Source of the DNA: a virus
Lineage: Duplodnaviria; Heunggongvirae; Uroviricota; Caudoviricetes
DNA: 64,000 bases
Strand: one strand, 5' to 3'
Virus record (IMG/VR): IMGVR_UViG_3300031963_000024
Location: 69,753 to 133,752 of that record
The translations under genes were made by a program, and so were the position numbers. This document shows positions 1 through 44,255 of the stretch, one piece after another; within the stretch, counting starts at the first letter, position 1, and every line of letters begins with the position of its first letter. The notes under the pieces were generated by a model. That model was given only the letters and a program-made list of their open reading frames with translations, was not told where the DNA came from and did not search any database.

Positions 1-1
1 T

Positions 2-1024
2 TTGAATCCTGATTATGATAAATCCAATACACTAATCCAAGTTTTAAATAGCTTAGGTATTATTACCGTGATGGATTTAGATGACTATTGGCTACCCACA
101 AAAGAACATCCAGCATATCATTTAGTTGTACAACACAAAATTCATGAAAAAATTTTAGCGAACATCAAGGTCGCAAAATATGTGACGACAACTACATCTA
201 TTTTTGCAGATGAAATTAAAAAGTATAACAAAAATGTATTTGTTTTACCAAACGCTATTAATCCAAATGAACAACAATTTATGGAACCAACAAAACCATC
301 AGAAAAATTACGATTTGGTTGGTTAGGTGGTTCTTCACACTTGCATGATTTGGGATTAATGAAAGGTTTTACAGATGCTATTGGTCAAGAATTTAGAGAT
401 AAGTCACAAATATTTCTTTGTGGTTTTGATACAAGAGGAACAATGACTGAAATTAACGCACAAACTGGTGAACAAAAACAAAGAGCAATTCTACCACAAG
501 AAACTGTGTGGGCGAGATATGAAGAAATTTTTACAAAAAATTATGAATTCACAACACCTGAATACAAGGATTATTTGATGAAATTTAGACAAGACTCTTG
601 GAATGGTAGTGAACAATTTTATAATCGTGTTTGGACTGAACCAGTGACATCTTACGCGAAAAACTACGCTAAATTTGATGTGTCTTTGGCACCAATTATG
701 AATCACACATTTAATAGAGTTAAATCACAATTGAAGGTAATTGAAGCTGGTTTTTATAAAAAAGCAATTGTGGCATCAAATATTGGTCCTTACACAATTG
801 ATTTGAAACATTCATTGGAAAATGGTAACTTTGTTGATGGAAATGCAATCTTAGTTGAGGAAAAAAGAAATCATTCAGATTGGGCTAAAGCAATGAAAAA
901 ACTAATTCAAAACCCAACATGGGCGGCAGATTTAGGTGAAAGATTATACGAAACAGTAAAAGACAAATACGATTTAAATATTGTTACAGACCATAGAGCA
1001 CAACTTTACAAATCATTAAAATAA
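2..1024 (+). CDS. Glycosyltransferase, GT-B fold (GT1/GT4-like), 5'-partial
   Basis: ORF runs off the window's 5' edge. The C-terminal half carries the GT-B group-1 signature (EAGFYKKAIVASNIGPYT...GNAILVEE), which resembles the E-x7-E region of retaining GT4 enzymes. Confidence 0.5.
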   Translation: MNPDYDKSNTLIQVLNSLGIITVMDLDDYWLPTKEHPAYHLVVQHKIHEKILANIKVAKYVTTTTSIFADEIKKYNKNVFVLPNAINPNEQQFMEPTKPSEKLRFGWLGGSSHLHDLGLMKGFTDAIGQEFRDKSQIFLCGFDTRGTMTEINAQTGEQKQRAILPQETVWARYEEIFTKNYEFTTPEYKDYLMKFRQDSWNGSEQFYNRVWTEPVTSYAKNYAKFDVSLAPIMNHTFNRVKSQLKVIEAGFYKKAIVASNIGPYTIDLKHSLENGNFVDGNAILVEEKRNHSDWAKAMKKLIQNPTWAADLGERLYETVKDKYDLNIVTDHRAQLYKSLK

Positions 1025-1025
1025 A

Positions 1026-1733
1026 ATGTTACCATATCCAAAAACCAAATTATTATTCTTTGACTTGGAAACTGTTGGTGGTTATCCAACACTAAAAGAA
1101 TTTGAAAAAAGTAATCCTGAACTTCATAAAGTTTTTATGAAATATCAAGATTGGTTTATTAAAAAATTTCCTGAGGACAAAGACAAAACACCTGAGGAAA
1201 TTTACGAAACAAGAGCCGCTCTTGTTCCTGAATTTGCCAAAATTGTTGTGGCAAGTTTTGCTTTTATTTCACCTGATGGAAAAATGCAAATGCAAACATT
1301 CGCGTTGGACGATGAAAAACAACTACTTAAAAATACAATTCAACTTTTAAATAAGGTTCACAAACTTAATTTTTTTATGTGTGGACATAACATTAAAGGG
1401 TTTGATATTCCAATGTTGGCAAAACGGATGATGATTAATGGTTTTGTACCACCGGCAATTATCCCAACCGCAGATACCAAGCCATGGGAAATTAAAGCCC
1501 TTGATACAAAAGAATTATGGAATGGTACAAACCCATTCACAATCGCGTCGTTAGAATTGATTTCAGTATCAATGGGTTGTGAATCATCAAAAGGTGGACC
1601 TGTTACTGGTGGTGTTGTTCACCACTCTTATTGGGAAGCAGGAATTCTTGATAAAATTGCGGAATACTGTGAAGACGATGTAAAAGCGTTGGTAGACTTA
1701 ATAGAAAAATTTGATAAATTACAATATGTTTAA
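1026..1733 (+). CDS. DEDDh-type 3'-5' exonuclease (DnaQ/RNase T-like)
   Basis: Exo I motif FFDLETVGG; Exo II motif CGHNIKGFDIPML; Exo III-like H...D (HHSYWEAGILD). Length is typical for this family. Confidence 0.65.
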   Translation: MLPYPKTKLLFFDLETVGGYPTLKEFEKSNPELHKVFMKYQDWFIKKFPEDKDKTPEEIYETRAALVPEFAKIVVASFAFISPDGKMQMQTFALDDEKQLLKNTIQLLNKVHKLNFFMCGHNIKGFDIPMLAKRMMINGFVPPAIIPTADTKPWEIKALDTKELWNGTNPFTIASLELISVSMGCESSKGGPVTGGVVHHSYWEAGILDKIAEYCEDDVKALVDLIEKFDKLQYV

Positions 1734-2322
1734 AAATCTAAAACAAATGAATAGTTTAATTTCTGAAATGAAGAAATTAACAAATGACCCAAATGCTTTG
1801 AAAGACCCACAAGCAATGATGGAATCTATGGGTATTGACCAAGATGAAATTGAAAAACAATTATCGGGTTTATTAACCAAAAAAGCAACTTTAAAATTTA
1901 CCAAAATTCATCCTGATTCGGTTGAACCAAAGTATAACTATGAAAGTGATTCAGGATTTGATTTACACTCAACCGAAGATTTGGAAGTTGGTCCATTTGG
2001 TAGAATTTTGGTACCAACAGGATTAAGATTTGATATTCCAATGGGTCATGAAATACAAGTAAGACCAAAGAGCGGTTTAGCTCTTAAACAAGGTTTAACT
2101 GTATTAAACACACCGGGAACAGTAGATGCTGGATATGACGGTGAAGTAAAAGTTATTGTATATAATACAAATAATCACGTTGTAATAATACCAAAAGGTA
2201 TGAAAATTGCACAAGCAGTTTTATGTCCAGTAATAAATGGTAAATTTGTAACACTACACGAAGTAATCGAATTAGATGAAAAAGAACGAGGCTCAAACGG
2301 ATTTGGTTCAACAGGAATCTAA
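1711..2322 (+). CDS. dut: dUTP diphosphatase (trimeric dUTPase) with ~55-aa N-terminal extension
   Basis: All canonical motifs are present: SDSGFDL, PKSGLALK, GTVDAGYDGEVKV, and the C-terminal RGSNGFGSTG. The true start may be a downstream Met, since the 5' end overlaps the preceding ORF by 23 nt. Confidence 0.9.
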   Translation: MINYNMFKNLKQMNSLISEMKKLTNDPNALKDPQAMMESMGIDQDEIEKQLSGLLTKKATLKFTKIHPDSVEPKYNYESDSGFDLHSTEDLEVGPFGRILVPTGLRFDIPMGHEIQVRPKSGLALKQGLTVLNTPGTVDAGYDGEVKVIVYNTNNHVVIIPKGMKIAQAVLCPVINGKFVTLHEVIELDEKERGSNGFGSTGI

Positions 2323-2698
2323 TACTAGTCCTGTGTTGGCAAATGGTGTTAAGAACTATCTAATTGACATTGATGGTACAGTAACTGAAGATGTGCCAAA
2401 TGAAGAATCTGAACGTATGGCAACTTGTTTACCATATGAAGGTTCGGTAGATATGATTAACACTTGGTATGATGATGGACATATTATAACATTCTTCACA
2501 TCGAGGACTGATGAACATGAAATAGTAACCAAACAATGGTTAGATAAACATGGTTTCAAATACCACAACTTGTTACTTAATAAACCAAGAGGTGGAAACT
2601 ATCATTGGATTGATAATCACATTGTACGAGCGACTCGTTATGATGGTAAATGGGGTGAATTAGTTAAAAAAGAACACACAATAGAAGTATTTGAATAA
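2276..2698 (+). CDS. HAD-superfamily phosphatase (nucleotidase / Pnk-phosphatase-like)
   Basis: HAD motif I LIDIDGTVT (DxDGT); motif II FFTSRT; Lys/Asp motifs (NKPRGG, WIDNH). The 5' end overlaps dut by 47 nt in another frame. A TTG near 2335 could be the real start. Confidence 0.55.
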   Translation: MKKNEAQTDLVQQESNTSPVLANGVKNYLIDIDGTVTEDVPNEESERMATCLPYEGSVDMINTWYDDGHIITFFTSRTDEHEIVTKQWLDKHGFKYHNLLLNKPRGGNYHWIDNHIVRATRYDGKWGELVKKEHTIEVFE

Positions 2699-4338
2699 TG
2701 ATTACAATTGGATATAGTACCCGAAGTTCAAAACCTGAACTACAAGAATATTTTAAAAAAACTTGTGGTGTAAAAAATATACAGGTTATTGAAAAAGTTA
2801 ACCCAAATGGTCAGTCGTTGACTGACGTTTATAACGATATTTTAAATGAATCTGAAAATGACATTGTGGTACTTTGTCACGATGACATTTATTTTGATAA
2901 CAAGAGTTGGGGATTTAAGATTTTGGAACACTTTAAAAAGACCGATTATGGTATCTTAGGGGTTGCAGGTTCAACTAACTTACCTAAGTCAGGTATGTGG
3001 TGGGAAGACCGTCGCAAAATGGTTGGTATTGTAAATCACGAACACGAGGGTAAAAAATGGGAATCAAAATATTCAAATGATTTAGGGAACAAAATTCATC
3101 AGACAGTTTTGATTGATGGATTGTTTATGGTTGTGAATAAAAGTAGAATCCAAGAAAATTTTGATACCAATGTTAAAGGTTTTCATTTGTATGATGTTGA
3201 TTTTTGTTTTAGAAATTACATTAAAGATGTAAAAATTGGTGTAATGTTCAATATTAGAATAACCCATAAATCAATTGGAATGACAAATGAACAATGGGAT
3301 TTAAACAGACAAGAATTTTCAAACAAATACCAAGACCAATTACCTATTAAAATCAAAAAAACAAAAGAAGATAAATTAAAAATTCTTTTATCTTGTTTAA
3401 ATTTTAAAACATTTACAGGTTCAGAAGTTTATGTTTATGAATTAGCCAAAGGATTAGTTAAAATGGGTCACGATGTTACAGTTTTATCTGAAATTGGTGG
3501 TCCGTTAACTGATAAAGCAAAAAAGATTGGTATTAAAGTTAGACCATTTAGTGAACCGCCAGGTTTTAAAATGGGTGATGGTAAATGGTCAGTGTCAACA
3601 CCAAACGGTGTTGAGGTTTCTAAAGAAGGTATGCTGTACAAAATACAAGATATTAACTACGATATTATTCACGTTCAACATGAACCAGTTACTAATATGG
3701 TACTACAATTATACCCAAATATTGAAAAAATTGCCACCATTCATTCAGAAGTTATTGATTTAGAAAAACCTGTGAAACATGAATCAATTAAGAGATATAT
3801 CGCAATTAGACCTGAAATTAAGGAACATATTGTTGAGCAAGATGAAATTACTGAATCACTAGTTGATGTTATTTATAACCCAATTGATGATACAAGGTTT
3901 AATGAAAAAGAAACCACAGAAGAAAATGCCGTGTTGTTTGTTGGAACAATAGATTATCTAAGAGAACAAACAATTAAAGATTTGATTGAATATACTAATG
4001 AAAATCAAATGGAATTGTGGATTGTAGGTGAAAACAAATCAGATTATTTAAATGATATTTTATTAAACAAACACGTCAAAAGATTTACACCAACTTGGAA
4101 TACCGAAACATTTATTAGAAAGGCAAAAGAAACTGCTGGTATTCTTTTAGGTAGAACAACAATTGAAAGTTGGATGTGTGGTAAAAAATCTTGGATATAT
4201 AACGTAGACAAATCAGGTGGCATTTTATCAAAAGAATTGGTTTCTCCACCACAAGATATAAATAAATTTTATGGTTCAACAGTTTGTGAAAAATTGGTGG
4301 ACTCTTACCTTAATATTATCAATGAAACTTTTAATTAA
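2698..4338 (+). CDS. Two-domain glycosyltransferase (N-terminal GT-A-like, C-terminal GT-B/GT4-like)
   Basis: N-terminal part has VVLCHDDIYF...ILGVAGS (DxD-like). C-terminal part starts with a GT4 N-domain signature (FTGSEVYVYELAKGLVKMGHDVTVL) and ends with TAGILLGRTTIESWMCGKK. Confidence 0.5.
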   Translation: MITIGYSTRSSKPELQEYFKKTCGVKNIQVIEKVNPNGQSLTDVYNDILNESENDIVVLCHDDIYFDNKSWGFKILEHFKKTDYGILGVAGSTNLPKSGMWWEDRRKMVGIVNHEHEGKKWESKYSNDLGNKIHQTVLIDGLFMVVNKSRIQENFDTNVKGFHLYDVDFCFRNYIKDVKIGVMFNIRITHKSIGMTNEQWDLNRQEFSNKYQDQLPIKIKKTKEDKLKILLSCLNFKTFTGSEVYVYELAKGLVKMGHDVTVLSEIGGPLTDKAKKIGIKVRPFSEPPGFKMGDGKWSVSTPNGVEVSKEGMLYKIQDINYDIIHVQHEPVTNMVLQLYPNIEKIATIHSEVIDLEKPVKHESIKRYIAIRPEIKEHIVEQDEITESLVDVIYNPIDDTRFNEKETTEENAVLFVGTIDYLREQTIKDLIEYTNENQMELWIVGENKSDYLNDILLNKHVKRFTPTWNTETFIRKAKETAGILLGRTTIESWMCGKKSWIYNVDKSGGILSKELVSPPQDINKFYGSTVCEKLVDSYLNIINETFN

Positions 4339-4984
4339 ATTTCCGACAAGGTCCCGTAGAAAACAATTCTTTGAAACCTTTAACAGGTATCAAGAATACA
4401 TAAGTGAACCCACCACAAGGTTTTTAATTACCATAGATGAGGATGACTCAGACATGAACAATGATGAGGTACTGGCAATACTTGAATCATACGATAATGT
4501 ATCTTTTGTAATTGGTCAAAGTAATTCTAAAATTCACGCAATTAACCGTGATATTGATACATCAGAAGATTGGGATATTATCTTATTGGCATCTGATGAT
4601 ATGATACCACAAGTTAAAGGGTTTGATAAAGTTATTAATACTTTGATGAACGCAAATTACCCTGACACAGATGGAATCCTTTTCTTTAATGATGGATTTA
4701 AAGGTCAAGAATTAAACACATTGTGTATTTTGGGTAAGAAATATTATGAAAGATTTAATTACATTTATTATCCTGAATATAAATCAGTTTGGTGTGATAA
4801 TGAGTTTATGTTAGTCGGAAACTTACTAAGAAAACAAAAGTATTTCCCAATGGTTATTATCAAACATGAACACCCTGATTGGGGATATGGTAAACATGAC
4901 GTAATACACAATAAAAATCATTCAGACTTGTCTTTTGATATGAATTTATTTAAAGATAGACAATCCAAAAATTTCTACATATGA
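4322..4984 (+). CDS. Hypothetical protein, possibly nucleotide-sugar transferase-like
   Basis: Start adjusted to the internal ATG at 4322 (MKLLIKFPTRS), giving only a 17-nt overlap. No recognisable catalytic motif. It lies inside the glycan gene cluster. Confidence 0.35.
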   Translation: MKLLIKFPTRSRRKQFFETFNRYQEYISEPTTRFLITIDEDDSDMNNDEVLAILESYDNVSFVIGQSNSKIHAINRDIDTSEDWDIILLASDDMIPQVKGFDKVINTLMNANYPDTDGILFFNDGFKGQELNTLCILGKKYYERFNYIYYPEYKSVWCDNEFMLVGNLLRKQKYFPMVIIKHEHPDWGYGKHDVIHNKNHSDLSFDMNLFKDRQSKNFYI

Positions 4985-5640
4985 AAAAAATCATATCATT
5001 TTGTTTGTGGGGTGATAATCCAAAATACACAATCGGAGCGATTGAAAACGCCAAATTAGCAAAAACAATATATCCTGATTGGACATGTAGATTTTATGTT
5101 GGTACTTCAACACCCGATGAAATTTGGGATGAATTATACGACATGGACAATACCGAAATGATTAATATGGAAATTGATGGTAATTGGTCAGGAATGTTTT
5201 GGAGATTTTATCCAGCGTCTGAAAATGACGTAGATGTTTTTATTGTCAGAGACACTGATTCAAGATTAAGTCAAAGAGAAAAAGAAGCCGTTGATGAATG
5301 GTTATCATCAGATAAAGGATTACATATTATGAGGGACCATCCTTTTCATAATAGTTTAATTATGGGTGGTATGTGGGGAATGAAAAAAGACACGTTTCCT
5401 AAAATGAAGGAACTGATTGACATCTACAAGGGAGGTGATTTTTGGCAAGTTGACCAAAACTTTTTAAATGAAATGGTTTACCCTTTGTGTAAAAATAATA
5501 CCATTATACATGACGAATTCATGAATTTTGAAAGTTGGAAAAAACCATTTCCAAGTGAAAGAAAAGACAAGGAATTTGTTGGTGATGTTTTTGATGAACA
5601 TAATCAAAGACACCCAGAATATTATACATTTATACCATGA
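4981..5640 (+). CDS. Hypothetical protein (glycan-cluster member)
   Basis: ATGA start/stop coupling with the upstream gene. No motif recognised. Confidence 0.4.
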   Translation: MKKIISFCLWGDNPKYTIGAIENAKLAKTIYPDWTCRFYVGTSTPDEIWDELYDMDNTEMINMEIDGNWSGMFWRFYPASENDVDVFIVRDTDSRLSQREKEAVDEWLSSDKGLHIMRDHPFHNSLIMGGMWGMKKDTFPKMKELIDIYKGGDFWQVDQNFLNEMVYPLCKNNTIIHDEFMNFESWKKPFPSERKDKEFVGDVFDEHNQRHPEYYTFIP

Positions 5641-6497
5641 AAATACTAATAATACAAGAAGCCGGAAGAAATGAACCAAACAAAGAATTTAGAGAGGCCA
5701 AAAATTTTCATAGGGGATTTCAAAAATTAGGGATTGATAGCGTCGTATGGGGGTTAAACCATGAAAATTTCAATATCCCTTACAATGAAATATCTAAAGA
5801 TTGTGATGTTATTTTTTTATTAGAAAATTATGAAACAGGTGGATGGGTACCCGATTTATCAAATGAAAAAAAATTAAAATTGTTTTGGTCTATTGATTCT
5901 CATTGTGTACCCACATCACATTTTAACACCGCAAAAAACCATAATATTGATATTGTACTTTATGCGGTATATAATCACGGAAAATTATTTGGTAGTCGTA
6001 AAACAATTTATTTACCTAATGCATATCCAGATGATTTAATTTACCCCATTAATGAAATTGAAAAAATTAATGATGTTGGGTTTTGTGGTTCTATTTTAAA
6101 TCGACAATCACATTTAAATTTATTATCAAAAAATTTTAATTTTAAAAATGATACTTTTGTTTTGGGACAAAAAATGGTTGAGACTATTAACTCATATAAA
6201 ATTCATTTTAATAGAAATTTATCTGATGATATTAATTTTAGAACGTTTGAGACTTTAGGGTGTAAAACGTTTTTAATAACAAACCCAACACCAGGTATTA
6301 ATGAATTATTTGAGATTGATAAACATTTAGTTGTTTATAAAAATAACGATGAATTAATTGAAAAAATAAAATATTATTTAGATAATGAAAATGAAAGAAA
6401 ATTGATTGAAAATCAAGGTTATGAATTTGTTAGAGAAAACCACACTTATTTTCAAAGAGCTAAACAAATTGTAAAAATAATAGAAGAAAATGTTTGA
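5637..6497 (+). CDS. CgeB-like / DUF3880-type glycosyltransferase
   Basis: C-terminal region FETLGCKTFLITNPTPGINELFE...VVYKNNDELIEKIKYY resembles the spore-maturation CgeB glycosyltransferase family. ATGA coupling to the upstream gene. Confidence 0.45.
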   Translation: MKILIIQEAGRNEPNKEFREAKNFHRGFQKLGIDSVVWGLNHENFNIPYNEISKDCDVIFLLENYETGGWVPDLSNEKKLKLFWSIDSHCVPTSHFNTAKNHNIDIVLYAVYNHGKLFGSRKTIYLPNAYPDDLIYPINEIEKINDVGFCGSILNRQSHLNLLSKNFNFKNDTFVLGQKMVETINSYKIHFNRNLSDDINFRTFETLGCKTFLITNPTPGINELFEIDKHLVVYKNNDELIEKIKYYLDNENERKLIENQGYEFVRENHTYFQRAKQIVKIIEENV

Positions 6498-7849: not shown

Positions 7850-8402
7850 ATATTTTAGATTTGATGATGTTTGTATTAATGCTGATATAGATTTGATAAA
7901 CAAAATGACAACATTTATGTTTGAAAAATTTCCAGACTGTGTTGTATTGTACGGAGTATCACCATTAGTTCACGACATGAGTTATGAAAAGAATGATGTT
8001 GAGAAACAAAGAATTTTTCCAAGAATATTAAACGCGTTATCGGATTATAAAAACTTCTATAAGGTTGACATGGCTGGATTGCCTGAGTTTCACCCAAAAG
8101 CAACATTAGCAGCACATGGATTAATACATGTTGACCATAGATTATTACCAAAGTCAGTACAAGAAATTAGTATATTAATTAGTGCTAGTTTAGTTAAATC
8201 AAAAATATTTATTCCACCATTTAATAAATGGAATAAAGATACTGAAGAAATATGTGATGAACATGGAATTGAATTAGTTAAATTTGAAGACGGTTGGTTG
8301 AGTATGGAACATAACAATTTTTCTGATATTCATAATAAATGGTATCTTCATGCTAGAGAATTTGAGTATGAAGATTTTGTTAAATGGTTTGGAAATGTAT
8401 AA
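7836..8402 (+). CDS. Hypothetical protein
   Basis: ORF in operon context. Confidence 0.4.
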   Translation: MKKIKYFRFDDVCINADIDLINKMTTFMFEKFPDCVVLYGVSPLVHDMSYEKNDVEKQRIFPRILNALSDYKNFYKVDMAGLPEFHPKATLAAHGLIHVDHRLLPKSVQEISILISASLVKSKIFIPPFNKWNKDTEEICDEHGIELVKFEDGWLSMEHNNFSDIHNKWYLHAREFEYEDFVKWFGNV

Positions 8403-9177
8403 AGTAGGTATTGTAGGTATGGGATTTGTGGGGAAAGCTGTGTTTCACGGTTTTTCTTTATTTTGTGAAACTAAAGGGTATGATATTGACCCTAAAAAAA
8501 GTACACATACTCTTGATGATGTTTTAAATTCTGATTTTGTTTTTGTTTGTTTGCCAACGCCAGAATCTTCAAATGGCTCAGCAGATTTAACCTACATACA
8601 TGATTTTTTTAATTCGTTAGAAAATAAAAATCCAATTTTTATTTTAAAATCAACAGTACCAATAGGGACAACATCTAATATTGAATCGTTGTATTCGGTT
8701 AAAATTGTTCATAGTCCAGAATTTTTATCCGCCAGAACCGCAGACATTGATTTTATAACATCTAATCGTGTTATTGTTGGTTCTAACAATTTAGAAATTT
8801 CATTAAAAGTTAACGAATTATTCACACAAAGATTTCCAGGTATTAATACTGTCACAACAACCCCAAATGAATCAGAATTAATTAAGTATTTTTTAAATTG
8901 TTTTTTCTCAACAAAAATAACATTCTTTAATGAAATGAGATTATTATCCGATAAACTTAATTTAAGTTGGGATAGTATTATGAATGGTGTATTAAGTGAT
9001 GGTAGAATTGAAAAAATGCACACGGATGTTCCTGGACATGACGGTAAATTTGGATTTGGTGGTGCTTGTTTTCCTAAAGACACAAAAGCCCTTAGAGACG
9101 TGTTTATTCAAAACCAAATTCAACCAATTGTTTTAGATTCAGTTATTAAACAAAATAGTATTATTAGACATGATTGA
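8392..9177 (+). CDS. UDP-glucose/GDP-mannose dehydrogenase family protein (short form)
   Basis: N-terminal Rossmann motif MYKVGIVGMGFVGKAV. Central motif HSPEFLSARTADIDF...RVIVG. Catalytic Cys motif GFGGACFPKDTKAL. The protein ends about 25 aa after the Cys motif, so the usual C-terminal UDP-binding domain is absent. Confidence 0.7.
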   Translation, partial: EMYKVGIVGMGFVGKAVFHGFSLFCETKGYDIDPKKSTHTLDDVLNSDFVFVCLPTPESSNGSADLTYIHDFFNSLENKNPIFILKSTVPIGTTSNIESLYSVKIVHSPEFLSARTADIDFITSNRVIVGSNNLEISLKVNELFTQRFPGINTVTTTPNESELIKYFLNCFFSTKITFFNEMRLLSDKLNLSWDSIMNGVLSDGRIEKMHTDVPGHDGKFGFGGACFPKDTKALRDVFIQNQIQPIVLDSVIKQNSIIRHD

Positions 9178-9649
9178 ATTAAATGATATAAATTGGGGCG
9201 GTTCAGGAATTGAAAAATGTTTATACGATTTTTTAATTAATAAATTTCCTAAAGGAACTAAAATGTTAGAATTTGGTGGAGGTAAAGTATCAACAAATGT
9301 TTTTTCTAATTACTTTAATTTAACAACAGTTGAAGAAGATTTAGAATGGTTAAACATTTTTAAAAATAGGTACATTTATGCACCAATAAAAAATGATTGG
9401 TATGACAATGAAATATTATCTAAAGAATTAGATAATGATTATCAAGTTATTTTTGTTGATGGTCCATTAGGCGAAGGAAATCGTGTTGGATTATTAAATA
9501 ATTTAAATTTATTTAATGAAAATATTACTTGGGTTTTTCATGATACATACAGAGTATCTGAAAAAAATTTAGCGACTGAATTCTCTGAAAAAACAAACAA
9601 AAAAATAACGTTTTATTCTGAGTGTGATTATTGGGCAATTGTAGAATAA
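9170..9649 (+). CDS. Putative SAM-dependent methyltransferase
   Basis: MLEFGGGKVST (motif I-like), TTVEED (post I), FVDGP (motif IV-like). Confidence 0.35.
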   Translation: MIELNDINWGGSGIEKCLYDFLINKFPKGTKMLEFGGGKVSTNVFSNYFNLTTVEEDLEWLNIFKNRYIYAPIKNDWYDNEILSKELDNDYQVIFVDGPLGEGNRVGLLNNLNLFNENITWVFHDTYRVSEKNLATEFSEKTNKKITFYSECDYWAIVE

Positions 9650-9650
9650 T

Positions 9651-10217
9651 ATGAAAATATCTATACACCAACCTAATTTTATGCCTTGGTTACCATTTTT
9701 CAAAAAAATTGAAATTGTTGATAAATTTGTTATTTTACAAAATTGCCAATTTGAAAAAAACAATTTTCAAAATAGATTTAATATTGAAGACAAGTGGTAT
9801 ACCTTAAGTACCAATAGAGGATTAGAACCAATTATAAATAAAAAATATGTTAATCATGTTAAAGATTGGTTAAAAATTAAAAACAATCTTAAAGACTATA
9901 AAGAAGTTTTAGACATGTTTGATGATTGTATTACTGAAAATTTATCAGAAACAAATTCTAAAATTATAAAAAAAGTTTGTAATATGTTAGATATTAAAAC
10001 TGAAATTGTGTTTGATTACCCGACTGATTTAAAATCAACGGAAAGGTTACTTGATATCTGTGTTAAACATGGCGCAACTGAATATGTTGCGGGAAGTAGT
10101 GGAAAAAAATACATGGACATTAAATTATTTGAAGATAGAAACATTAATGTAATTTTTCAGTCAACAAATAAAGAAGATATGATACCAATAGTTGAGGTAT
10201 TAAAAAAACAACTTTAA
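9651..10217 (+). CDS. WbqC-like family protein (LPS/O-antigen biosynthesis-associated)
   Basis: N-terminus MKISIHQPNFMPWLPFFKKIEIVDKFVILQNCQFEKNNFQNRFNI matches the WbqC family signature (IHQPNYLPWLGYF...FQNRN). Confidence 0.55.
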   Translation: MKISIHQPNFMPWLPFFKKIEIVDKFVILQNCQFEKNNFQNRFNIEDKWYTLSTNRGLEPIINKKYVNHVKDWLKIKNNLKDYKEVLDMFDDCITENLSETNSKIIKKVCNMLDIKTEIVFDYPTDLKSTERLLDICVKHGATEYVAGSSGKKYMDIKLFEDRNINVIFQSTNKEDMIPIVEVLKKQL

Positions 10218-10247
10218 TTTTTAAAAAAAAATAATACTTTATATATA

Positions 10248-10994
10248 ATGGATAAAAAACCTAGAAGAACCCCTACAGTATCTGTAGAAGACTCAAACCA
10301 ACAACACAAATCAAAAAAAGAAATTATCGGTACTTTGATTAAGAAAAAAACAAAAGATAAATTTTTATCAGATAGTCAAAAAGAGTATTATGAAATATTA
10401 CAAAACAATCAGATAACAATTTGTTCAGGTCCTGCAGGTGTAGGTAAATCATATATTGCAATGAAAGCCGCAATTGATTTATTAGCCGACCCCAACAATT
10501 CTTACGAAAAATTAATTATTGTAAGACCCGCAGTTGAAGCCGAGGAAAAACTTGGTTCACTACCTGGGAATGTTGAAGAAAAATTAGACCCGTATATTTT
10601 TCCGTCTTACTATCTTTTAAATAAAATTATTGGAAAAGATGTTAGGGAAAAATTAAAAAATATGGAAATTATTGAAGTTTTCGCCTTGGCTTATATGAGA
10701 GGTATGAACATTGATAACTCAATTCTTATTTTTGAAGAAGCACAAAACTGTACACCAAAACAAATGAAACTTCTTTTAACAAGAATTGGTTTTAACAGTA
10801 AATTTTTTATATCTGGTGATTTAGAACAAACTGACCGATATAAGGACAAAACACATTCAGGACTATGGGACGCTTTAGAAAAGTTTAAAAACATTGATGA
10901 TATAGGAACTTTTACATTTAAAGATTCTGACATTGTTAGAAATGCGATAATTACAAAAATATTAAAAAAATACGAAGATGAAGTTCGCTTTTGA
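10248..10994 (+). CDS. phoH: PhoH-like ATPase
   Basis: Walker A motif CSGPAGVGKSYIA; PhoH signature RPAVEAEEKLGSLPG; Walker B motif ILIFEEAQN. Confidence 0.85.
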   Translation: MDKKPRRTPTVSVEDSNQQHKSKKEIIGTLIKKKTKDKFLSDSQKEYYEILQNNQITICSGPAGVGKSYIAMKAAIDLLADPNNSYEKLIIVRPAVEAEEKLGSLPGNVEEKLDPYIFPSYYLLNKIIGKDVREKLKNMEIIEVFALAYMRGMNIDNSILIFEEAQNCTPKQMKLLLTRIGFNSKFFISGDLEQTDRYKDKTHSGLWDALEKFKNIDDIGTFTFKDSDIVRNAIITKILKKYEDEVRF

Positions 10995-11589
10995 TACCGA
11001 TGAAGTTTTAAGAGACACAATCTCTAAAATGAAAGCTACTTATGAAAAGTTTTTTATTGAGGACTATGTTTCTGAAGAAGGTGAAGAAGAGTTTGAGTAT
11101 AAAATAATTGAACCAATTACTTCACACAAATTTTCAGAACATTTTTTATTCCCATCTGAAAGTGACTATATTAATTTTTTATACTTGGATTTCCCAATGA
11201 ATATTTTTGGTCACTCACCATCAATGTCGGCAAATACATTTAACACTTTTTCTGAAATTCAAAAAAATGTTTTATCTAAAAGAGACAAATTAAGTGTTAT
11301 AGGAATGGGTGTGGCAAAAATAAAACCAGCATCATTATTTTTTTACTCAAAATATGGTATGGAAGTAGACAACATACAATTTTACAATAAAAAAACCATC
11401 AAAAAAATATGGTCTAAATTTGATGTTATAGTTACAGCAAACCCAGATTTACTTGAAATTAAACCAAAAAACAAAACATCAATTAAAATAAACACGGATT
11501 ATAACCAAAACTATGAGTCTGATTATTCAATTGATTCTATTGAAGGTTTTACTTCGGTATATAATCAATTAAAATTAAAACATGCTTAA
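10978..11589 (+). CDS. Hypothetical protein
   Basis: ORF with a 17-nt overlap to phoH. Confidence 0.4.
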   Translation: MKFAFDTDEVLRDTISKMKATYEKFFIEDYVSEEGEEEFEYKIIEPITSHKFSEHFLFPSESDYINFLYLDFPMNIFGHSPSMSANTFNTFSEIQKNVLSKRDKLSVIGMGVAKIKPASLFFYSKYGMEVDNIQFYNKKTIKKIWSKFDVIVTANPDLLEIKPKNKTSIKINTDYNQNYESDYSIDSIEGFTSVYNQLKLKHA

Positions 11590-11848
11590 TATATTTGGAG
11601 AAACATATCACATTGATTTTGATAAAATTGAGAATTTAATTTCTATAAAACAAACAGACACTGGTGATACTAAACAAAATGTTAGTATCGTTAAATTTGA
11701 ACTTATTAAAACAATGTTAGATGTTGTTCTTTCAGAGTCGGGTGAAATTGATGAAAAGATGGGTTTAAAAGGTAGTAATGATTTAACTATTCCCTTTAAA
11801 ATTGCTTTTAATACATTATTAAGATACGAAATATTACAAACATTATGA
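11582..11848 (+). CDS. Hypothetical protein
   Basis: Small ORF coupled to its neighbours. Confidence 0.35.
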   Translation: MLNIFGETYHIDFDKIENLISIKQTDTGDTKQNVSIVKFELIKTMLDVVLSESGEIDEKMGLKGSNDLTIPFKIAFNTLLRYEILQTL

Positions 11849-12900
11849 ACACAGAACTTATAACAAAATTAGAATTATCAATTAGTAATTTGGAAGAAAA
11901 AAAATCAAGAATATATTTTTTAGTTCAAGATACTAAAGGTAACGCCAAAGCTTCTATTAGAGTAATTTATGAAATGGCTTACCATTTATTTGAAAATGGT
12001 TACAACGCAATTATTATGCATGAACAAACTGACTATAAAGGTGTTTCATCTTGGTTAGATGAAAAATACATGTCATTACCACACAAACCAATTGAGGGAC
12101 AAAACTTAGAAATTTCACCTGAAGATTTTATGATAATTCCTGAATTATATGGACACGTAATGGAACAAGTTTCAAAATTTCCATGTGGTAAGATTGTATT
12201 ATGTCAATCATATGATTACATAATGGAAACATTAAGTCCCGGTACATCTTGGTCACAATACGGATTTTTAAAGTGTATCACAACTAGCGAAGAACAAAAA
12301 AAATATTTGGAAAAAATAATGAAAAATGTTTCATTTGATGTTATTGAACCAACAATTTCAAATTCATTCGAAAGAAAACCAATACCGTCAAAACCAATAG
12401 TGTCTGTTCACACAAGAGACCAAAGGGACACTATGAAGTTGATTAAAACTTTTTATTTAAAATACCCACAATTTAGATGGATTACTTTTAGAGATATGAG
12501 AGGTTTGAGTGAATTAGAATTTGCAACAATACTAAAAGACTCTTTTGTGTCTATATGGGTTGATGACATTTCAGGTCTTGGGACATATCCATTAGAATCA
12601 ATGAAAACAGGTACACCTGTGATTGGAAAAATACCTAATTTAAAACCTGATTGGATGAATGAACACAATGGTATTTGGACAAATGATACAATAAACATGG
12701 TTGATATATTAGCGGAATTTACACAAAACTGGCTTGAGGATAACATTTCAGAAAAACTTTACGAATCAGGTTATGAAACAGCTGAAAAATTTACAAATAC
12801 TGATGATTTCAAATCAAAAGTTTTAGAACGTTTTTCATCATATATAAACACGAGATTAAGTAATTTTAATTCTCAATTAGAAAAATTAAAAACAAATTAA
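11845..12900 (+). CDS. Glycosyltransferase, GT-B fold (GT4-like)
   Basis: C-terminal motif SFVSIWVDDISGLGTYPLESMKTGTPVIG matches the GT1-family E-x7-E sugar-donor pocket. Confidence 0.45.
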   Translation: MNTELITKLELSISNLEEKKSRIYFLVQDTKGNAKASIRVIYEMAYHLFENGYNAIIMHEQTDYKGVSSWLDEKYMSLPHKPIEGQNLEISPEDFMIIPELYGHVMEQVSKFPCGKIVLCQSYDYIMETLSPGTSWSQYGFLKCITTSEEQKKYLEKIMKNVSFDVIEPTISNSFERKPIPSKPIVSVHTRDQRDTMKLIKTFYLKYPQFRWITFRDMRGLSELEFATILKDSFVSIWVDDISGLGTYPLESMKTGTPVIGKIPNLKPDWMNEHNGIWTNDTINMVDILAEFTQNWLEDNISEKLYESGYETAEKFTNTDDFKSKVLERFSSYINTRLSNFNSQLEKLKTN

Positions 12901-12902
12901 TT

Positions 12903-13712
12903 ATGGAAAATAAAGTAGATATTTCAGTTATATTACCAATCGCATCATCATTTGGAAAAGATTTTGACATTCTTTTTGAAAAAGCGATTGACTCAATAAA
13001 AAAACAACAAGTTTCAATTAATGAACTTATTATTGTTCATTCGGATGAAGAATCATTATGTACTAAATTAAATTCATTTGATTTTGGTGATTTAAATGTT
13101 GTTAAAGTATTAAACACATCAGAACATACTGATTACGCATCACAAGTTAATCTTGGTGTCAAAAACGCATCATCAACATGGGTTAGTTTCTTTGAACACG
13201 ATGATGAATATTCGTTTATATGGTTTAAAAATGTGAATGATTATATTAAATACCACCCTGAGTGTGATGGATTTTTACCAATCGTTGTTGATGTTGATGA
13301 AACAGATGTATTCGCGGGATACACAAATGAAGCAACATTTGCGGCTTCATTCAACACTGAAATTGGTATTCTAACTAATGAATTGTTAAATCAATATCAA
13401 AATTTCCAAACAAGTGGAATGGTTGTTAAAAAATCAATTTTGGATAATTTTGGTGGTTTTAAAAAATCAATGAAACTAACATTTGTTTATGAATTTTTAT
13501 TAAGATTGACATATAACTCAGCAAGAATAATGACTATTCCAAGATTGGGATACAAACATGCTAACATGAGAGAATCATCAATTTTTTGGGGATATAAAAA
13601 CGGAAAAAATGTTTTGACCGACAACGAGGTTAAGTTTTGGATTGATACAGCAAAAAAAGAATATTTTTTTACAAATGACCGTGACATAAAATACGAAGAA
13701 ACCACTAATTAA
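12903..13712 (+). CDS. Glycosyltransferase family 2 (GT-A fold)
   Basis: ISVILPIASS...ELIIVHSDEE...NLGVKNASSTWVSFFEHDDEY follows the GT2 pattern (ss-ViiP...N.G...a.g.yi.flD.DD). Confidence 0.5.
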   Translation: MENKVDISVILPIASSFGKDFDILFEKAIDSIKKQQVSINELIIVHSDEESLCTKLNSFDFGDLNVVKVLNTSEHTDYASQVNLGVKNASSTWVSFFEHDDEYSFIWFKNVNDYIKYHPECDGFLPIVVDVDETDVFAGYTNEATFAASFNTEIGILTNELLNQYQNFQTSGMVVKKSILDNFGGFKKSMKLTFVYEFLLRLTYNSARIMTIPRLGYKHANMRESSIFWGYKNGKNVLTDNEVKFWIDTAKKEYFFTNDRDIKYEETTN

Positions 13713-39806: not shown

Positions 39807-39822
39807 GACCCCTTTTTTTTAA
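39788..39822. terminator. Bidirectional rho-independent terminator
   Basis: AAAAAAGGGGTC-AATTAA-GACCCCTTTTTTTT at a convergent junction. Confidence 0.75.
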
Positions 39823-44205: not shown

Positions 44206-44241
44206 GATAAGTGTTTGATACTTCGGTATCAAATACTTATC
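44206..44241 (+). other. Perfect 16-bp stem-loop with UUCG tetraloop (processing/stability element or U-tract-less terminator)
   Basis: GATAAGTGTTTGATAC-TTCG-GTATCAAATACTTATC with one G.U pair. No trailing U-tract. Confidence 0.5.
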
Positions 44242-44255
44242 ATTACACAAAGTAT

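Follow-up and report, generated by a model that had tools for sequence, protein, structure and literature searches.

A glycan-biosynthesis locus with a conserved frame and an exchangeable cassette in an uncultured, distant T4-like phage

Within the 64 kb stretch of viral DNA that we analysed (the window), we identify a functional glycan-biosynthesis locus with two layers, namely a conserved frame of genes and an exchangeable cassette. Our preferred reading, to which we give a probability of roughly 45%, is that soluble cytoplasmic enzymes encoded here build a variable, acidic, methylated glycan on an acceptor of the phage's own, probably a virion protein. In the ORF map of the window, 22 consecutive plus-strand ORFs form a gap-free array spanning positions 2-21041, in agreement with the single plus-strand array described in an initial annotation of this DNA. 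The many ATGA overlaps it had also reported were borne out in part, as the raw ORF map has overlaps at 15 junctions but a strict ATGA at only 3 of 21. The genes o1 to o19 are as follows.

o1, 2..1024, + strand: GT-B type glycosyltransferase (PHROG 7162 'glycosyltransferase', 7.9e-46)
o2, 1026..1733, + strand: PolB-type 3'-5' exonuclease of the conserved frame (PF10108, 3.4e-09), kept in relatives
o3, 1726..2322, + strand: dUTPase (PF00692, 2.8e-25)
o4, 2276..2698, + strand: small HAD-superfamily phosphatase (PF24694, 2.5e-09)
o5, 2698..4338, + strand: two-domain glycosyltransferase, GT-A-like Glyco_tranf_2_5 then GT4-type GT-B (Pfam)
o6, 4322..4984, + strand: putative glycosyltransferase (PHROG 14945 'glycosyltransferase', 2.4e-16)
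o7, 4981..5640, + strand: member of a very large and highly conserved family (3867 homologues, with identity typically at 60-65%)
o8, 5637..6497, + strand: CgeB-like glycosyltransferase, C-terminal half of GT-B (PF13524, 1.2e-28)
o9, 6490..7269, + strand: conserved protein (dN/dS 0.12-0.15)
o10, 7259..7849, + strand: probable class I SAM methyltransferase (Methyltransf_24, sub-threshold)
o11, 7836..8402, + strand: conserved protein (dN/dS 0.05-0.09)
o12, 8350..9177, + strand: predicted short two-domain nucleotide-sugar 6-dehydrogenase (PF03721 and PF00984)
o13, 9170..9649, + strand: small class I SAM-dependent O-methyltransferase-like protein (fold-confirmed)
o14, 9651..10217, + strand: WbqC-like protein (PF08889, 2.2e-32)
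o15, 10248..10994, + strand: PhoH-like ATPase, non-glycan (PF02562, 2.7e-63)
o16 and o17, 10978..11848, + strand: two conserved small proteins between PhoH and the glycosyltransferase pair, without family match
o18, 11845..12900, + strand: GT-B (GT4-like, retaining type) glycosyltransferase (family profile and AF2 fold)
o19, 12903..13712, + strand: GT2-family (GT-A) glycosyltransferase (PF00535, 3e-06, 27.7 bits against a cut-off of 23.3)

The replicon is a large, uncultured freshwater phage, distantly T4-like, whose host is probably a member of the Bacteroidota. The claim that the locus is phage-borne is upheld by genes for a T4-like major capsid protein, a portal and a large terminase elsewhere in the window and by the recurrence of the locus on numerous contigs of freshwater phages, up to 193 kb long; these glycosyltransferases were found in no cultured relative. 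What had been described as one 14-kb island is instead three glycan modules, because 5 to 7 of the 19 genes are non-glycan and split it (the PolB-type exonuclease, the dUTPase, the HAD phosphatase, PhoH, o16 and o17). The dUTPase ORF opens at TTG 1711, its likely start is ATG 1726, and public contigs have it as a 198-aa protein. The o4 product, with weaker matches to Acid_phosphat_B and HAD_PNKP, is possibly a sugar-phosphate phosphatase.

HMM, profile or fold evidence backs o1, o5, o6, o8, o18 and o19, in line with the at least six glycosyltransferases first proposed. Support from Pfam itself is mixed: o5, o8 and o19 pass, o1 lies just below the cut-off (26.3 bits against 27 for Glyco_trans_1_4), and o6 and o18 have no match. 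The third of the GT-B enzymes counted initially, o6, is a putative glycosyltransferase whose GT-B fold is presumptive, with no match in Pfam or PDB.

The conserved frame has four of these glycosyltransferases, namely o1, o5 and the paired o18 and o19, and they are retained throughout the phage lineage. The 5' end of o1 is cut by the window edge (its full length is 403 aa on full contigs, e.g., L001), and the gene is 68% identical in L056 and L069, with dN/dS of 0.15-0.18. The two domains of o5, PF13712 (Glyco_tranf_2_5, 1.4e-26, residues 37-211) and PF13439 (GT4 N-domain, 5.4e-16, residues 241-400), are found in a protein that is 43-48% identical in L050, L056, L058 and L069, 94% in L250 and 71% in L251 (dN/dS 0.05-0.18). 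The family profile of o18, which has 652 relatives among 50%-identity representatives, matches the GT4 enzyme AmGGT (PDB 8xsg) at 2.1e-26, and the AF2 model (pLDDT 95.3) has a GT-B fold for which Foldseek returns 8xsg as the best match (E 7.9e-14, TM 0.74). Identity of o18 between lineage members is only 58-75%, with dN/dS of 0.14-0.23. Always adjoining it, o19 (dN/dS 0.16-0.20) has weak NCBIfam matches to TuaG, AglG and PglI-type GT2 enzymes.

In this phage the cassette, o6-o14, comprises two or three further glycosyltransferases, one or two O-methyltransferases, the WbqC-like protein, the dehydrogenase, and o9 and o11. The ORF of o6 opens at 4271 with a likely start at 4322 (dN/dS 0.02-0.13). 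The family of o7 (dN/dS 0.07-0.09) has an invariant R-D-x-D-S-R motif and homologues named 'protein O-GlcNAc transferase' or SPINDLY in some sources; it has no Pfam model and its profile has no PDB match, and o7 may be a glycosyltransferase. The match of o8 to PF13524 is firm (100.4 bits, cut-off 25; dN/dS 0.07-0.09) and is of the CgeB type, CgeB being involved in spore-coat maturation. No match was found for o9 in Pfam, PHROG, NCBIfam or PDB, and none of significance for o11 in any library searched. Of the two SAM methyltransferases proposed, o13 is confirmed by its fold and o10 (dN/dS 0.11-0.22) falls below threshold (Methyltransf_24, 9e-4, 20.5 bits, cut-off 26.3); its ExGxG motif I lines up with that of a relative's protein that matches Methyltransf_24 firmly. 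The naming of o14 as WbqC-like proved sound (113 bits against a cut-off of 21.3). The WbqC family is associated with O-antigen clusters; it has no solved relative, and our literature search gave no functional work on it.

Two points absent from the first reading are the exchange of the cassette between o5 and PhoH and a fusion of the dehydrogenase to the methyltransferase in close relatives. The relatives L050, L056, L057, L058 and L069 have o1-o5, o12 and o15-o22 in common and carry different genes between o5 and o12, i.e., a DegT aminotransferase, GNAT and DUF1919 set, a sulfotransferase, or a UDP-GlcNAc 2-epimerase with a methyltransferase and a GT2. A further replacement set consists of GT29 sialyltransferase-like, KDO8P-synthase-like and DHDPS-like proteins and GSCFA. 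In 80 further lineage loci, o18-o22 are syntenic without exception, o16 is found in 76, o17 in 78 and PhoH in 73. The 4.4 kb upstream of PhoH in those 73 loci contain 343 ORFs that fall into 131 protein clusters (77 singletons), including SDR epimerases, DegT, GT2, GT11 and rhamnosyl-O-methyltransferase-like enzymes. Thus, between the two-domain glycosyltransferase, the conserved 5' anchor, and PhoH, the conserved 3' boundary, the whole gene set gives way to genes of other sugar pathways; PhoH and the genes as far as o22 are kept. The possibility that these are pseudogenes was tested and does not hold: the ten genes o5-o14 have dN/dS of 0.02-0.25 against two relatives with the same cassette and are all under purifying selection, and most conserved-frame genes have dN/dS of 0.1-0.4. 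The retention of four glycosyltransferases with the rest swapped suggests a strain-variable sugar coat, the target of which is most likely the phage's own particle.

The dehydrogenase had been described as a truncated UGDH ending about 25 aa past the catalytic Cys. The protein in fact ends 35 aa after Cys240, and the C-terminal UDP-binding domain is indeed absent: o12 matches the NAD-binding PF03721 (6.7e-17) and the central PF00984 (1.2e-18) but has no PF03720 match, and it aligns to UGDH structures only up to residue ~300 of 393-446. Truncation, however, is the wrong description. Judged by sequence, all catalytic residues are kept (invariant positions include S101, T102, E124, K179, N183, C240, K243 and D244), and the likely start at 8395 corresponds to a near-invariant Met16. 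The family is short everywhere it was found: on at least 592 contigs of viruses, on chromosomes of SAR86 and Woesebacteria, and in Marinimicrobia genomes. A damaged or truncated gene is ruled out by this large conserved two-domain subfamily with all its catalytic residues, and the short dehydrogenase appears to be a distinct enzyme form. To our knowledge, every characterised member of the UGDH family has a UDP-binding domain, and its lack counts against our preferred reading, in which o12 would be active without one. In close relatives (P0008, P0009, P0016 and L250), o13 is fused to the C-terminus of o12.

Since all products are soluble, the glycan would be assembled in the cytoplasm of the infected cell. 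The conserved glycosyltransferases would lay a common core on a phage-own acceptor, most likely a virion protein, and the cassette enzymes would then add and tailor a variable outer part. The dehydrogenase would oxidise the C6 of a hexose to a uronic acid through the Cys240/Lys243/Asp244 thiohemiacetal chemistry of the UGDH family, and the adjacent O-methyltransferase would methylate its product, giving a glycan that is acidic, methylated and particular to the strain. The acceptor, the order of the steps and the identities of the sugars are those we infer. Among characterised enzymes, o18 is closest to AmGGT and ApAgt, both soluble alpha-1,6-glucosyltransferases, the latter of which extends glucose on cytoplasmically N-glycosylated proteins (PMC12159676). 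Together with the four conserved glycosyltransferases and the lack of membrane, flippase or polymerase components, this relative acting on protein-linked glucose leans towards an acceptor belonging to the phage, where the initial annotation had offered both virion glycosylation and host-surface remodelling. The CgeB type of o8 points the same way. A 19-residue stretch as hydrophobic as a membrane helix is missing from every island protein, and their domain matches include no Wzx, Wzy, ABC transporter or initiating phosphoglycosyl-transferase. As a separate observation that runs against a virion acceptor, the island is co-linear with nucleotide-metabolism genes and does not lie within the head and tail genes.

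Soluble GT-B and GT-A enzymes also work on lipid-linked intermediates at the inner membrane face, so the missing transmembrane segments are compatible with work on host LPS or capsule precursors. The phage enzymes may accordingly modify lipid-linked O-antigen, capsule or other envelope glycan intermediates of the host during infection, a reading we consider rather unlikely. A changed host surface could exclude superinfecting phages, keep new virions from binding again to debris or to cells already infected, or mask receptors, and the cassette would vary because host surface polysaccharides do. The cassette families are of O-antigen and capsule type (WbqC, DegT, SDR epimerases, GT2, GT11, GT29-like, KDO8P-synthase-like and sulfotransferase), and o8-o14 are low in GC (24-28%, compared with 35-38% for head genes), consistent with their having been acquired from elsewhere. 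The locus adjoins large Laminin_G_3 proteins, probably tail fibres, the same layout as in the pelagimyophage 'host recognition cluster'; for such clusters in aquatic myophages, modification of the host O-chain is the one interpretation in print (PMC7029224). The phage also encodes a GDSL esterase and a 1511-aa protein, the latter with a homologue that contains a CHU_C (type IX secretion) domain, and both point to interaction with the host envelope. Against this stands the conservation of four glycosyltransferases in a lineage as diverse as the o18 identities indicate, with hosts presumably different: a hypervariable host polysaccharide would not favour such conservation, and a conserved acceptor fits it better. 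Moreover, the locus lacks any flippase, polymerase, transporter, initiating transferase or membrane protein, and the nearest characterised o18 relatives are cytoplasmic enzymes acting on soluble acceptors. Known seroconverting phage systems depend on membrane proteins and lysogeny, and no integrase was found among the part of the window genes that was scanned.

DNA glucosylation is classical in T4-like phages, the T-even phages being the familiar case, and this locus is interleaved with nucleotide-metabolism genes (the exonuclease, dUTPase, HAD phosphatase and PhoH). The glycosyltransferases could attach a complex glycan to modified bases of the phage's DNA as a defence against restriction and CRISPR, which we regard as improbable. 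In its favour, uronic-acid-containing DNA modifications occur in certain cultured phages that have UGDH-like genes, SP-15 among them. Phage DNA glycans made by 5hmC-glycan gene clusters can contain as many as three sugars, with Kdo and heptose among them, and the clusters can include epimerases (bioRxiv 10.1101/2023.12.21.572611). However, GATC is absent from the window (0 observed against 164 +/- 13 expected) and from 53 of the 80 lineage loci, and other 4-base palindromes are depleted in the window. The absence of GATC implies that the phage DNA is exposed to restriction; such selection is not expected on DNA shielded by bulky glycans. Our inspection for DNA-modification genes covered ~84 kb of a genome of ~190 kb or more, and a scan of 50 window proteins gave no C5-methyltransferase, hydroxymethylase or TET/JBP-type dioxygenase. 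A single ThyA-family gene came up, a short way beyond the window; its product, 40% identical to E. coli ThyA, is ruled out as a dCMP hydroxymethylase because it retains the dUMP-specifying Asn. The best structural matches of o18 are not the T4 alpha- or beta-glucosyltransferase. The view that the locus exceeds the needs of DNA glucosylation also stands, in that the gene set is larger than any described for this purpose, and we know of no described DNA glycan pathway that matches at least six glycosyltransferases plus methyltransferases.

The solubility of all island products would also suit a soluble acceptor outside the virion, envelope and DNA, with a host or phage non-structural protein, a small molecule, or a storage or compatible solute as candidates, or a mainly redirected host nucleotide-sugar pool. 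The solved structure nearest to o18 is that of AmGGT, an enzyme that elongates free oligoglucose and does not accept glycopeptides, which counts against a phage-protein acceptor. Of 80 viral loci, 41 have the short dehydrogenase among replication genes with an SDR epimerase/dehydratase as its sole partner, and there it resembles part of a two-gene metabolic module more than of a glycan locus. We nevertheless see little likelihood in this alternative: at least six glycosyltransferases with serotype-like exchange of tailoring genes point to a structured surface glycan under diversifying selection rather than to pool rewiring, and four of the glycosyltransferases are core genes of the lineage.

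The window opens with 22 consecutive plus-strand ORFs (o1 to o22, positions 2-21041), all intergenic gaps among them being 30 nt or shorter. Scans of the Pfam, PHROG and NCBIfam libraries gave the following assignments for o1 to o19, where GT stands for glycosyltransferase.

Gene map of the glycan locus
2-1024, +, o1: GT-B glycosyltransferase, incomplete at the window edge; full contigs give 403 aa
1026-1733, +, o2: PolB-type exonuclease
1726-2322, +, o3: dUTPase
2276-2698, +, o4: small HAD phosphatase
2698-4338, +, o5: two-domain GT (Glyco_tranf_2_5 and GT4)
4322-4984, +, o6: 'glycosyltransferase' by PHROG
4981-5640, +, o7: no assignment from library scans
5637-6497, +, o8: CgeB-like GT
6490-7269, +, o9: no assignment from library scans
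7259-7849, +, o10: Methyltransf_24, sub-threshold
7836-8402, +, o11: no assignment from library scans
8350/8395-9177, +, o12: UDP-sugar dehydrogenase, N-terminal and central domains only
9170-9649, +, o13: no assignment by sequence; fold of a class I methyltransferase
9651-10217, +, o14: WbqC
10248-10994, +, o15: PhoH
10978-11848, +, o16 and o17: no assignment from library scans
11845-12900, +, o18: no assignment by library scans; GT4 by family profile and AF2 model
12903-13712, +, o19: GT2

With o18 resolved by profile and model, six GTs are therefore supported among o1 to o19, and the gene inventory of the initial annotation, including its six GTs, proved essentially right. Its description of a 14-kb glycan island has to be redrawn: the glycan genes are present, but instead of one uninterrupted island they form three modules (o1; o5 to o14; o18 and o19) set apart by nucleotide-metabolism genes and genes without assigned function. 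Similarly, the tightly coupled plus-strand array is borne out by the short gaps and by 15 of the 21 junctions between o1 and o22 overlapping in the raw ORF map, but its supposedly many ATGA overlaps come down to three of the strict type.

The assignment of o18 draws on a profile of its family (54 sequences), which matches the GT4 glucosyltransferase AmGGT (PDB 8xsg) over residues 44-337 with an E-value of 2.1e-26 and other GT4 enzymes (BshA, SPS) at 1e-5 to 1e-3. The AF2 model of o18 (pLDDT 95.3, pTM 0.92) has a GT-B fold with two Rossmann-like lobes. It superimposes on 8xsg with a Foldseek TM of 0.74 at a sequence identity of only 19%, and the top 50 listed of its 262 PDB matches at E<=1e-3 are all GT-B enzymes. 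Foldseek also showed that many giant-virus GT-B proteins, some of them CgeB-like, share this fold, and a tblastn search of the phage collection with o18 found no homologue in cultured phages. Among the other genes, the WbqC-like o14 scores 113.1 bits against PF08889 (Pfam cut-off 21.3); neither it nor o5 had a match in the PDB, and the literature available to us contained nothing relevant on WbqC function. Single-sequence searches of PDB sequences with o6, o7, o9 and o11 returned nothing significant. The o7 family comprises at least 3867 database proteins of 215-220 aa, is unusually conserved, at 60-65% identity with 64 invariant columns, has no Pfam model, and found no match in the PDB when searched as a family profile. 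Some databases give o7 relatives the putative source annotation 'O-GlcNAc transferase/SPINDLY', and members of the family also occur in huge phages and in Synechococcus phage S-SRM01.

Comparison with related loci separates a frame of conserved genes, comprising the GTs o1, o5, o18 and o19 and the genes from PhoH to o22, from a cassette (o6 to o14) lying between o5 and PhoH. Five related viral contigs have o1 to o5, the short dehydrogenase (o12) and o15 to o22 in common at 43-77% protein identity, and their genes between o5 and the dehydrogenase are entirely different.

Cassette contents on the five contigs
L056 and L057: DegT aminotransferase, GNAT and DUF1919, then SDR, in both; a second, longer gene of the UDP-glucose dehydrogenase (UGDH) family, 386 aa, in L056 only of the two
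L050: sulfotransferase
L058: UDP-GlcNAc 2-epimerase, methyltransferase, GT2
L069: GT29 sialyltransferase-like, DHDPS-like, KDO8P-synthase-like, methyltransferase, GSCFA

A wider scan for o18, for which 10 sequences were used as the 54-sequence alignment was too divergent, located it on 564 or more viral contigs. Of the 80 best loci, all keep o18 to o22 in synteny and 73 have PhoH, and the 4.4 kb upstream of PhoH hold 343 ORFs falling into 131 protein clusters, 77 of them singletons, with SDR epimerases, DegT, several GT2, GT11 and a rhamnosyl-O-methyltransferase-like enzyme among the clusters. The cassette type of the window was found again on two contigs (L250 and L251), and its genes o8 to o14 have a GC content of 24-28% as against 35-38% for the head genes. 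When compared with L250 (dS ~0.5) and L251 (dS ~1.2), every gene from o5 to o14, including three without assigned function, has a dN/dS of 0.02-0.25, which removes the possibility, raised in the initial annotation, that these are host-derived pseudogenes. Comparison of frame genes with more remote relatives gave 0.1-0.4, except for o17 at ~0.6. We found no earlier description of such a two-layer layout, in which a cassette at a fixed position within a conserved GT frame is swapped in a serotype-like manner. To our knowledge, the GT clusters of aquatic phages have been listed in surveys and never explained; a four-GT frame with an exchanged cassette, all under purifying selection, gives the locus an architecture that can be tested.

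The dehydrogenase o12 has an NAD-binding Rossmann domain (PF03721, 6.7e-17), with the GxGxxG glycines G23, G25 and G28 invariant or near-invariant, and a central domain (PF00984, 1.2e-18) that aligns to 4a7p and 7kws across GFGGxCFPKD. Its residues E124, K179, N183, C240, K243 and D244 do not vary across 26 diverse family members and belong to an invariant catalytic set known from canonical UGDHs, namely the KSTVP Ser/Thr, the PEFL Glu, the central-helix Lys and Asn, and the Cys, Lys and Asp of C-x-x-K-D, whose roles are established UGDH enzymology. The C-terminal UDP-binding domain is absent, as had been claimed from the sequence, with no PF03720 match in o12 or any other window protein scanned; the protein ends, however, 35 residues past Cys240 and not about 25 as first estimated, whereas solved UGDHs run on for 100-150 residues as the UDP-binding domain. 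Thus o12 shares with the canonical three-domain UDP-glucose/GDP-mannose 6-dehydrogenases (4a7p, 7kws, 1dlj) the NAD-binding and central domains, the Cys-x-x-Lys-Asp motif, the Lys/Asn pair and the PEFL Glu, and differs from them in a family-specific insert, DVPGHDG, ahead of the GFGG-C motif and in a short conserved tail. No curated family covers this form; o12 scores 146.8 bits against the NCBIfam model for nucleotide-sugar dehydrogenases, TIGR03026, which is below the cut-off of 189.8.

The short form is not peculiar to this phage. The best 120 database relatives of o12, down to 48% identity, are nearly all 250-316 aa long. Relatives are encoded on 592 or more viral contigs; for the 80 best, the length of the ORF is 231-319 aa, except for two with an N-terminal extension. 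Cellular contigs, some of them complete chromosomes, carry it in SAR86, Woesebacteria and Marinimicrobia, with a length of ~250-335 aa in 78 of 80 loci (the exceptions being L168 with 388 aa and L213 with 489 aa), and the cultured Kyanoviridae phage C48C1 has a 319-aa version beside a nucleotide-sugar epimerase. We rejected the explanation that the short dehydrogenase is a pseudogene or an assembly artefact, since dozens of contigs independently show this length and short proteins are found throughout the family. The dN/dS of o12 is 0.12-0.15. These comparisons of sequence argue for a distinct two-domain subfamily common to these phages and streamlined bacteria, of which we found no published description. 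The commonest viral neighbour is an SDR epimerase/dehydratase (41 of 80 loci). On a 350-kb contig (L248, from JGI 3300024259), two tandem short paralogues of 264 and 282 aa at 5204-6849 are accompanied by two SDR epimerase/dehydratases, a dTDP-sugar isomerase, two radical-SAM enzymes (one B12-binding) and an MptE-like protein; this gene set looks like an elaborate deoxy-sugar pathway, and the contig is very large and probably viral. The SDR neighbours and the dTDP-sugar genes would therefore place the family in nucleotide-sugar pathways. The short form is abundant, both on viral contigs and in streamlined bacteria of marine waters and groundwater. It routinely receives the annotation UDP-glucose 6-dehydrogenase and is without the nucleotide-binding domain, and its real substrate therefore affects many metagenome annotations. 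A few longer versions were also seen: a 478-aa homologue (P0119) appears to have an intein-like insert of ~200 aa at the catalytic motif (GFGGTC...THN-CFPKD), and two loci that also hold o6 and o7 homologues (L014, at 9410-10858, and L015) encode a 482-aa version with a 195-aa N-terminal extension. A second methyltransferase fusion was suspected for this extension, but a PDB search and pairwise BLAST gave support to neither that nor any other assignment.

The gene directly following the dehydrogenase, o13, was considered as its displaced UDP-binding domain. This was rejected, since o13 is a class I methyltransferase by both fold and motifs. The o13 fold is a Rossmann-like seven-strand methyltransferase fold, and the 22 family members have E34, G36, G38, D97, H124 and D125 invariant, corresponding to motif I (E/DxGxGxG) of the SAM-binding loop and acidic residues after strands 4 and 5. 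Pfam scans of the individual members gave weak Methyltransf_24 matches in eight of the 22 (best E 0.017) and did not return the DUF579 family. The motifs presumably recall the plant DUF579 glucuronoxylan methyltransferases, a likeness that we take as a lead only. In three close relatives, namely P0008 (87% identity), P0009 (83%) and P0016 (69%), the dehydrogenase and an o13-type methyltransferase form one polypeptide of 416-431 aa, and on L250 the fusion sits within an otherwise identical cassette; as separate genes in the window, they share an overlap of 8 nt (ATGATTGA). The methyltransferase thus occupies the exact place of the canonical UDP-binding domain. From the fusion we infer that o12 and o13 may act on the same sugar, by C6 oxidation and O-methylation. 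We found no earlier description of a natural dehydrogenase/O-methyltransferase fusion, and it offers a concrete hypothesis for in vitro work.

The phage itself encodes a T4-type major capsid protein, portal, large terminase, prohead protease and ClpA-like ATPase in the window. Among cultured phages it is closest to Flavobacterium phage immuto, Microcystis phage Mel-JY01 and Rhodothermus phage RM378, with identities of only 28% for the terminase and 37-44% for the capsid; a megablast search of the phage collection with the 14 kb found no nucleotide match, and tblastn of o5 found none either. Many contigs of freshwater metagenomes, the longest 193 kb, carry the identical locus, and the lineage recurs in JGI samples 3300032093, 3300008111 and 3300032050. 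A lack of Shine-Dalgarno sequences together with A/T-rich upstream regions is typical of Bacteroidota and their phages, and in the window a Shine-Dalgarno core (AGGA, GGAG or GAGG) stands within 20 nt upstream of only one gene out of 52, with A/T-rich pre-start regions. In addition, a near-identical homologue, on another contig, of the 1511-aa protein at 53854-58389 (+) carries a faint PKD match and CHU_C, the C-terminal sorting domain of Bacteroidota type IX secretion substrates. Both the rarity of Shine-Dalgarno sequences and the CHU_C protein suggest that the host belongs to the Bacteroidota.

Proof of glycosylated virions exists for mycobacteriophages and giant viruses, and DNA glycans are likewise proven in T-even phages and others. 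In the present locus, no GT or tailoring protein has a hydrophobic 19-residue window of 1.6 or more; single 19-residue windows reach 1.6 only in the exonuclease, the dUTPase and o22, and none of o1 to o21 has a window typical of a membrane helix. Nor did Pfam, PHROG or NCBIfam scans detect an initiating phosphoglycosyl transferase, flippase, polymerase, ABC transporter or GtrA/B/C among o1 to o22. With neither membrane segments nor export domains, synthesis should therefore be cytoplasmic and any export reliant on the host. We put the probability that the acceptor is the virion or another phage-own protein at roughly 45%. The occurrence of four well-conserved, lineage-core GTs in diverse phages fits a conserved acceptor, and, by analogy, the soluble closest characterised relatives of o18 and the spore-coat CgeB type of o8 would favour a phage-own one, as would the improbability of a DNA target (see below). 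The o18 family is homologous to AmGGT and to Agt of the Actinobacillus ApNGT/ApAgt system, as soluble retaining GT4 enzymes, and ApAgt elongates glucose on cytoplasmically N-glycosylated adhesins (PMC12159676). As a difference from the Actinobacillus system, an HMW1C/NGT (GT41) homologue is not demonstrated in the phage. Against a virion acceptor, AmGGT does not accept glycopeptides (PMC12159676).

Several further observations that speak against a virion acceptor are in favour of the host envelope as the target, an explanation that we consider a serious one even if on the unlikely side. The cassette families are classic for O-antigen and capsule, and soluble GTs can use lipid-linked precursors. 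Moreover, L001 1-4527 (~2.6-7.1 kb upstream of the window) holds two large minus-strand genes, one of more than 966 aa with Laminin_G_3 and one of 633 aa, as well as a DUF3721 protein, set apart from o1 by a few small plus-strand ORFs. The two large genes are probably tail fibres, which would put the glycan locus close to a host-recognition region. Phage-encoded change of a surface glycan is also the logic of the seroconverting prophage systems (GtrABC, O-acetyltransferases), which are integral membrane proteins of temperate phages; in contrast, the products of the locus are all soluble, and no integrase was seen in the scanned part of the window. The lack of any membrane, flippase, polymerase, transporter or initiating-transferase gene among o1 to o22 likewise weighs against the host envelope, although host machinery could serve. 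The 1511-aa protein may be exported or surface-anchored by the type IX secretion system of the host, which would be unusual for a phage protein and bears on this alternative.

The nearest precedent for a host-surface target is the 'host recognition cluster' of pelagimyophages and cyanomyophages, hypervariable LPS/GT gene clusters for which modification of the host O-chain was proposed (Zaragoza-Solas et al. 2020, PMC7029224). As in the present locus, these clusters belong to aquatic T4-like myophages, contain several GTs and sugar-nucleotide enzymes including a 'UDP-glucose 6-dehydrogenase', and lie beside tail-fibre genes (PMC7029224). However, the window phage is not a pelagimyophage, its variable part has a fixed position between conserved genes, and four of its GTs are lineage-core; in the part of PMC7029224 available to us, neither a cassette-within-frame layout nor the short dehydrogenase form is reported.

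DNA as the acceptor would have a parallel in phage DNA-hypermodification clusters, in which GT-A and GT-B enzymes are recruited from LPS- or teichoic-acid-type enzymes, sometimes with epimerases, and which are defined by an adjacent C5-methyltransferase and 5mC dioxygenase, or a hydroxymethylase (Pyle et al., bioRxiv 10.1101/2023.12.21.572611). In contrast to these clusters and to T-even glucosyltransferases, no such base-activating enzyme (hydroxymethylase, C5-methyltransferase or 5mC dioxygenase) was found among the 50 window proteins scanned (~84 kb inspected of ~190 kb or more), and restriction sites are avoided. GATC does not occur in the 64-kb window (0 observed vs 164 +/- 13 expected) and is absent from 53 of 80 lineage loci as well, CCGG, TCGA, CGCG, GCGC and CTAG are at 0.34-0.48 of expectation, and the mean observed/expected ratio is 0.66 for 4-base palindromes vs 1.03 for other 4-mers. 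By the indirect argument that glycan-shielded DNA would need no restriction-site avoidance, we regard a DNA target as improbable. The absence of GATC in the window and in most of these loci implies extreme restriction-site avoidance, under strong lineage-wide pressure from GATC-specific nucleases.

A ThyA-family gene just past the window end also weighs against a DNA target. The stretch L252 11850-16010 (~70 bp to 4 kb past the 3' end of the window) includes this gene, whose product belongs to the thymidylate synthase family, is 389 aa long and has two insertions. At 40% identity to E. coli ThyA it keeps the catalytic Cys and the dUMP-specifying Asn and so is probably a true thymidylate synthase. 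Downstream of it in the stretch are an I-TevI-like GIY-YIG homing endonuclease, an RmlC-like dTDP-sugar isomerase, which is a further sugar-nucleotide gene outside the island, and a PPK2 polyphosphate kinase. Other soluble acceptors, or effects on the nucleotide-sugar pool, have in our estimate little chance of being the explanation, and a small remainder of the weight is left unassigned.

Within a phage-own acceptor, a more specific scheme can be put forward as speculation that is rather unlikely to hold in every part. The four conserved cytoplasmic GTs would build a common core, the swapped cassette would write the strain-specific outer part of a virion glycan, and in this strain the two-domain dehydrogenase, despite missing the UDP-binding domain that all characterised family members have, would make an acidic sugar. 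Such a virion coat would be to the phage what LPS core plus O-antigen is to a bacterium, and dozens of cassette types would exist in nature; the dehydrogenase may either oxidise an acceptor-bound hexose or pass its product to the fused or adjacent O-methyltransferase. If this is so, the UGDH family would gain a new functional class, one that SAR86 and CPR bacteria use as well. More generally, a virion target would mean that large environmental phages are coated with variable glycans, with effects on host recognition, adsorption to particles and grazing, and the reading of GT-type genes as 'host LPS' auxiliary metabolic genes would be complicated.

The mechanism proposed here resembles that of mycobacteriophages, whose soluble GTs, in work by Freeman et al. 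from 2023, reportedly act in the cytoplasm on capsid and tail proteins of the phage itself. Those phages have two or three GTs beside structural genes and no tailoring cassette, whereas the window locus has at least six GTs as well as the dehydrogenase, methyltransferases and WbqC, and its acceptor is a proposal. Chloroviruses and mimiviruses likewise make virus-encoded, host-independent, cytoplasmic and partly methylated glycans with multi-domain GTs and sugar-nucleotide enzymes such as UGDH. Their UGDH, however, is a full-length three-domain enzyme, they are viruses of eukaryotes, and the likeness is seen in overall logic and fold only. Another comparison is with the moraphages, large freshwater phages (200-307 kb) predicted to infect Bacteroidota. 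Their core genome comprises four orthogroups of putative GTs together with PhoH, a ClpA-type ATPase, a sigma factor and T4-like structural genes, and a Rhodothermus phage appears in their capsid tree (Perez-Hernandez et al. 2025, PMC12619734). Compared by description only, the window phage matches them in its four lineage-conserved GTs, PhoH, ClpA-like ATPase and distant relatives, but its longest contig of 193 kb is below their size range. The moraphage GTs are listed there without analysis of organisation, variability or dehydrogenase (PMC12619734). As such, the kind of region is known, GT-rich variable regions having been reported for aquatic myophages and a four-GT core for moraphages.

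Searches for regulatory signals in the window gave no guide to expression timing: with 18 occurrences vs 10.4 +/- 3.3 expected, the T4 late-promoter box TATAAATA shows no clear enrichment, and its orientation does not follow that of the genes. Sigma-70-like sites are as frequent as expected by chance, and the hairpins that resemble terminators fall within coding sequence. The major capsid protein (22251-24047, -, 597-598 aa) is spanned by the PHROG capsid profile only at residues 322-574, and its relatives align in two pieces covering 56-60% of it; this partial coverage suggests a large extra or insertion domain. The ClpA-like AAA+ ATPase (37722-39806, +) matches PHROG 4871 with an E-value of 1e-241 and lies between minus-strand genes for a nucleotidyltransferase-fold protein with weak MTPAP/NTP_transf_2 matches (36058-36813) and an M20/M42-type peptidase (39819-40661). 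An HNH endonuclease (44211-44765, +) lies directly upstream of the only tRNA gene, tRNA-Leu(TAA) at 44793-44879. Toward the end of the window, a GDSL/SGNH esterase (59385-60065, +), which could act on O-acetylated polysaccharide, is followed by a T4 Rnl1-type RNA ligase (60084-61115, +) and an SPFH/Band-7 protein (62217-63071, +).
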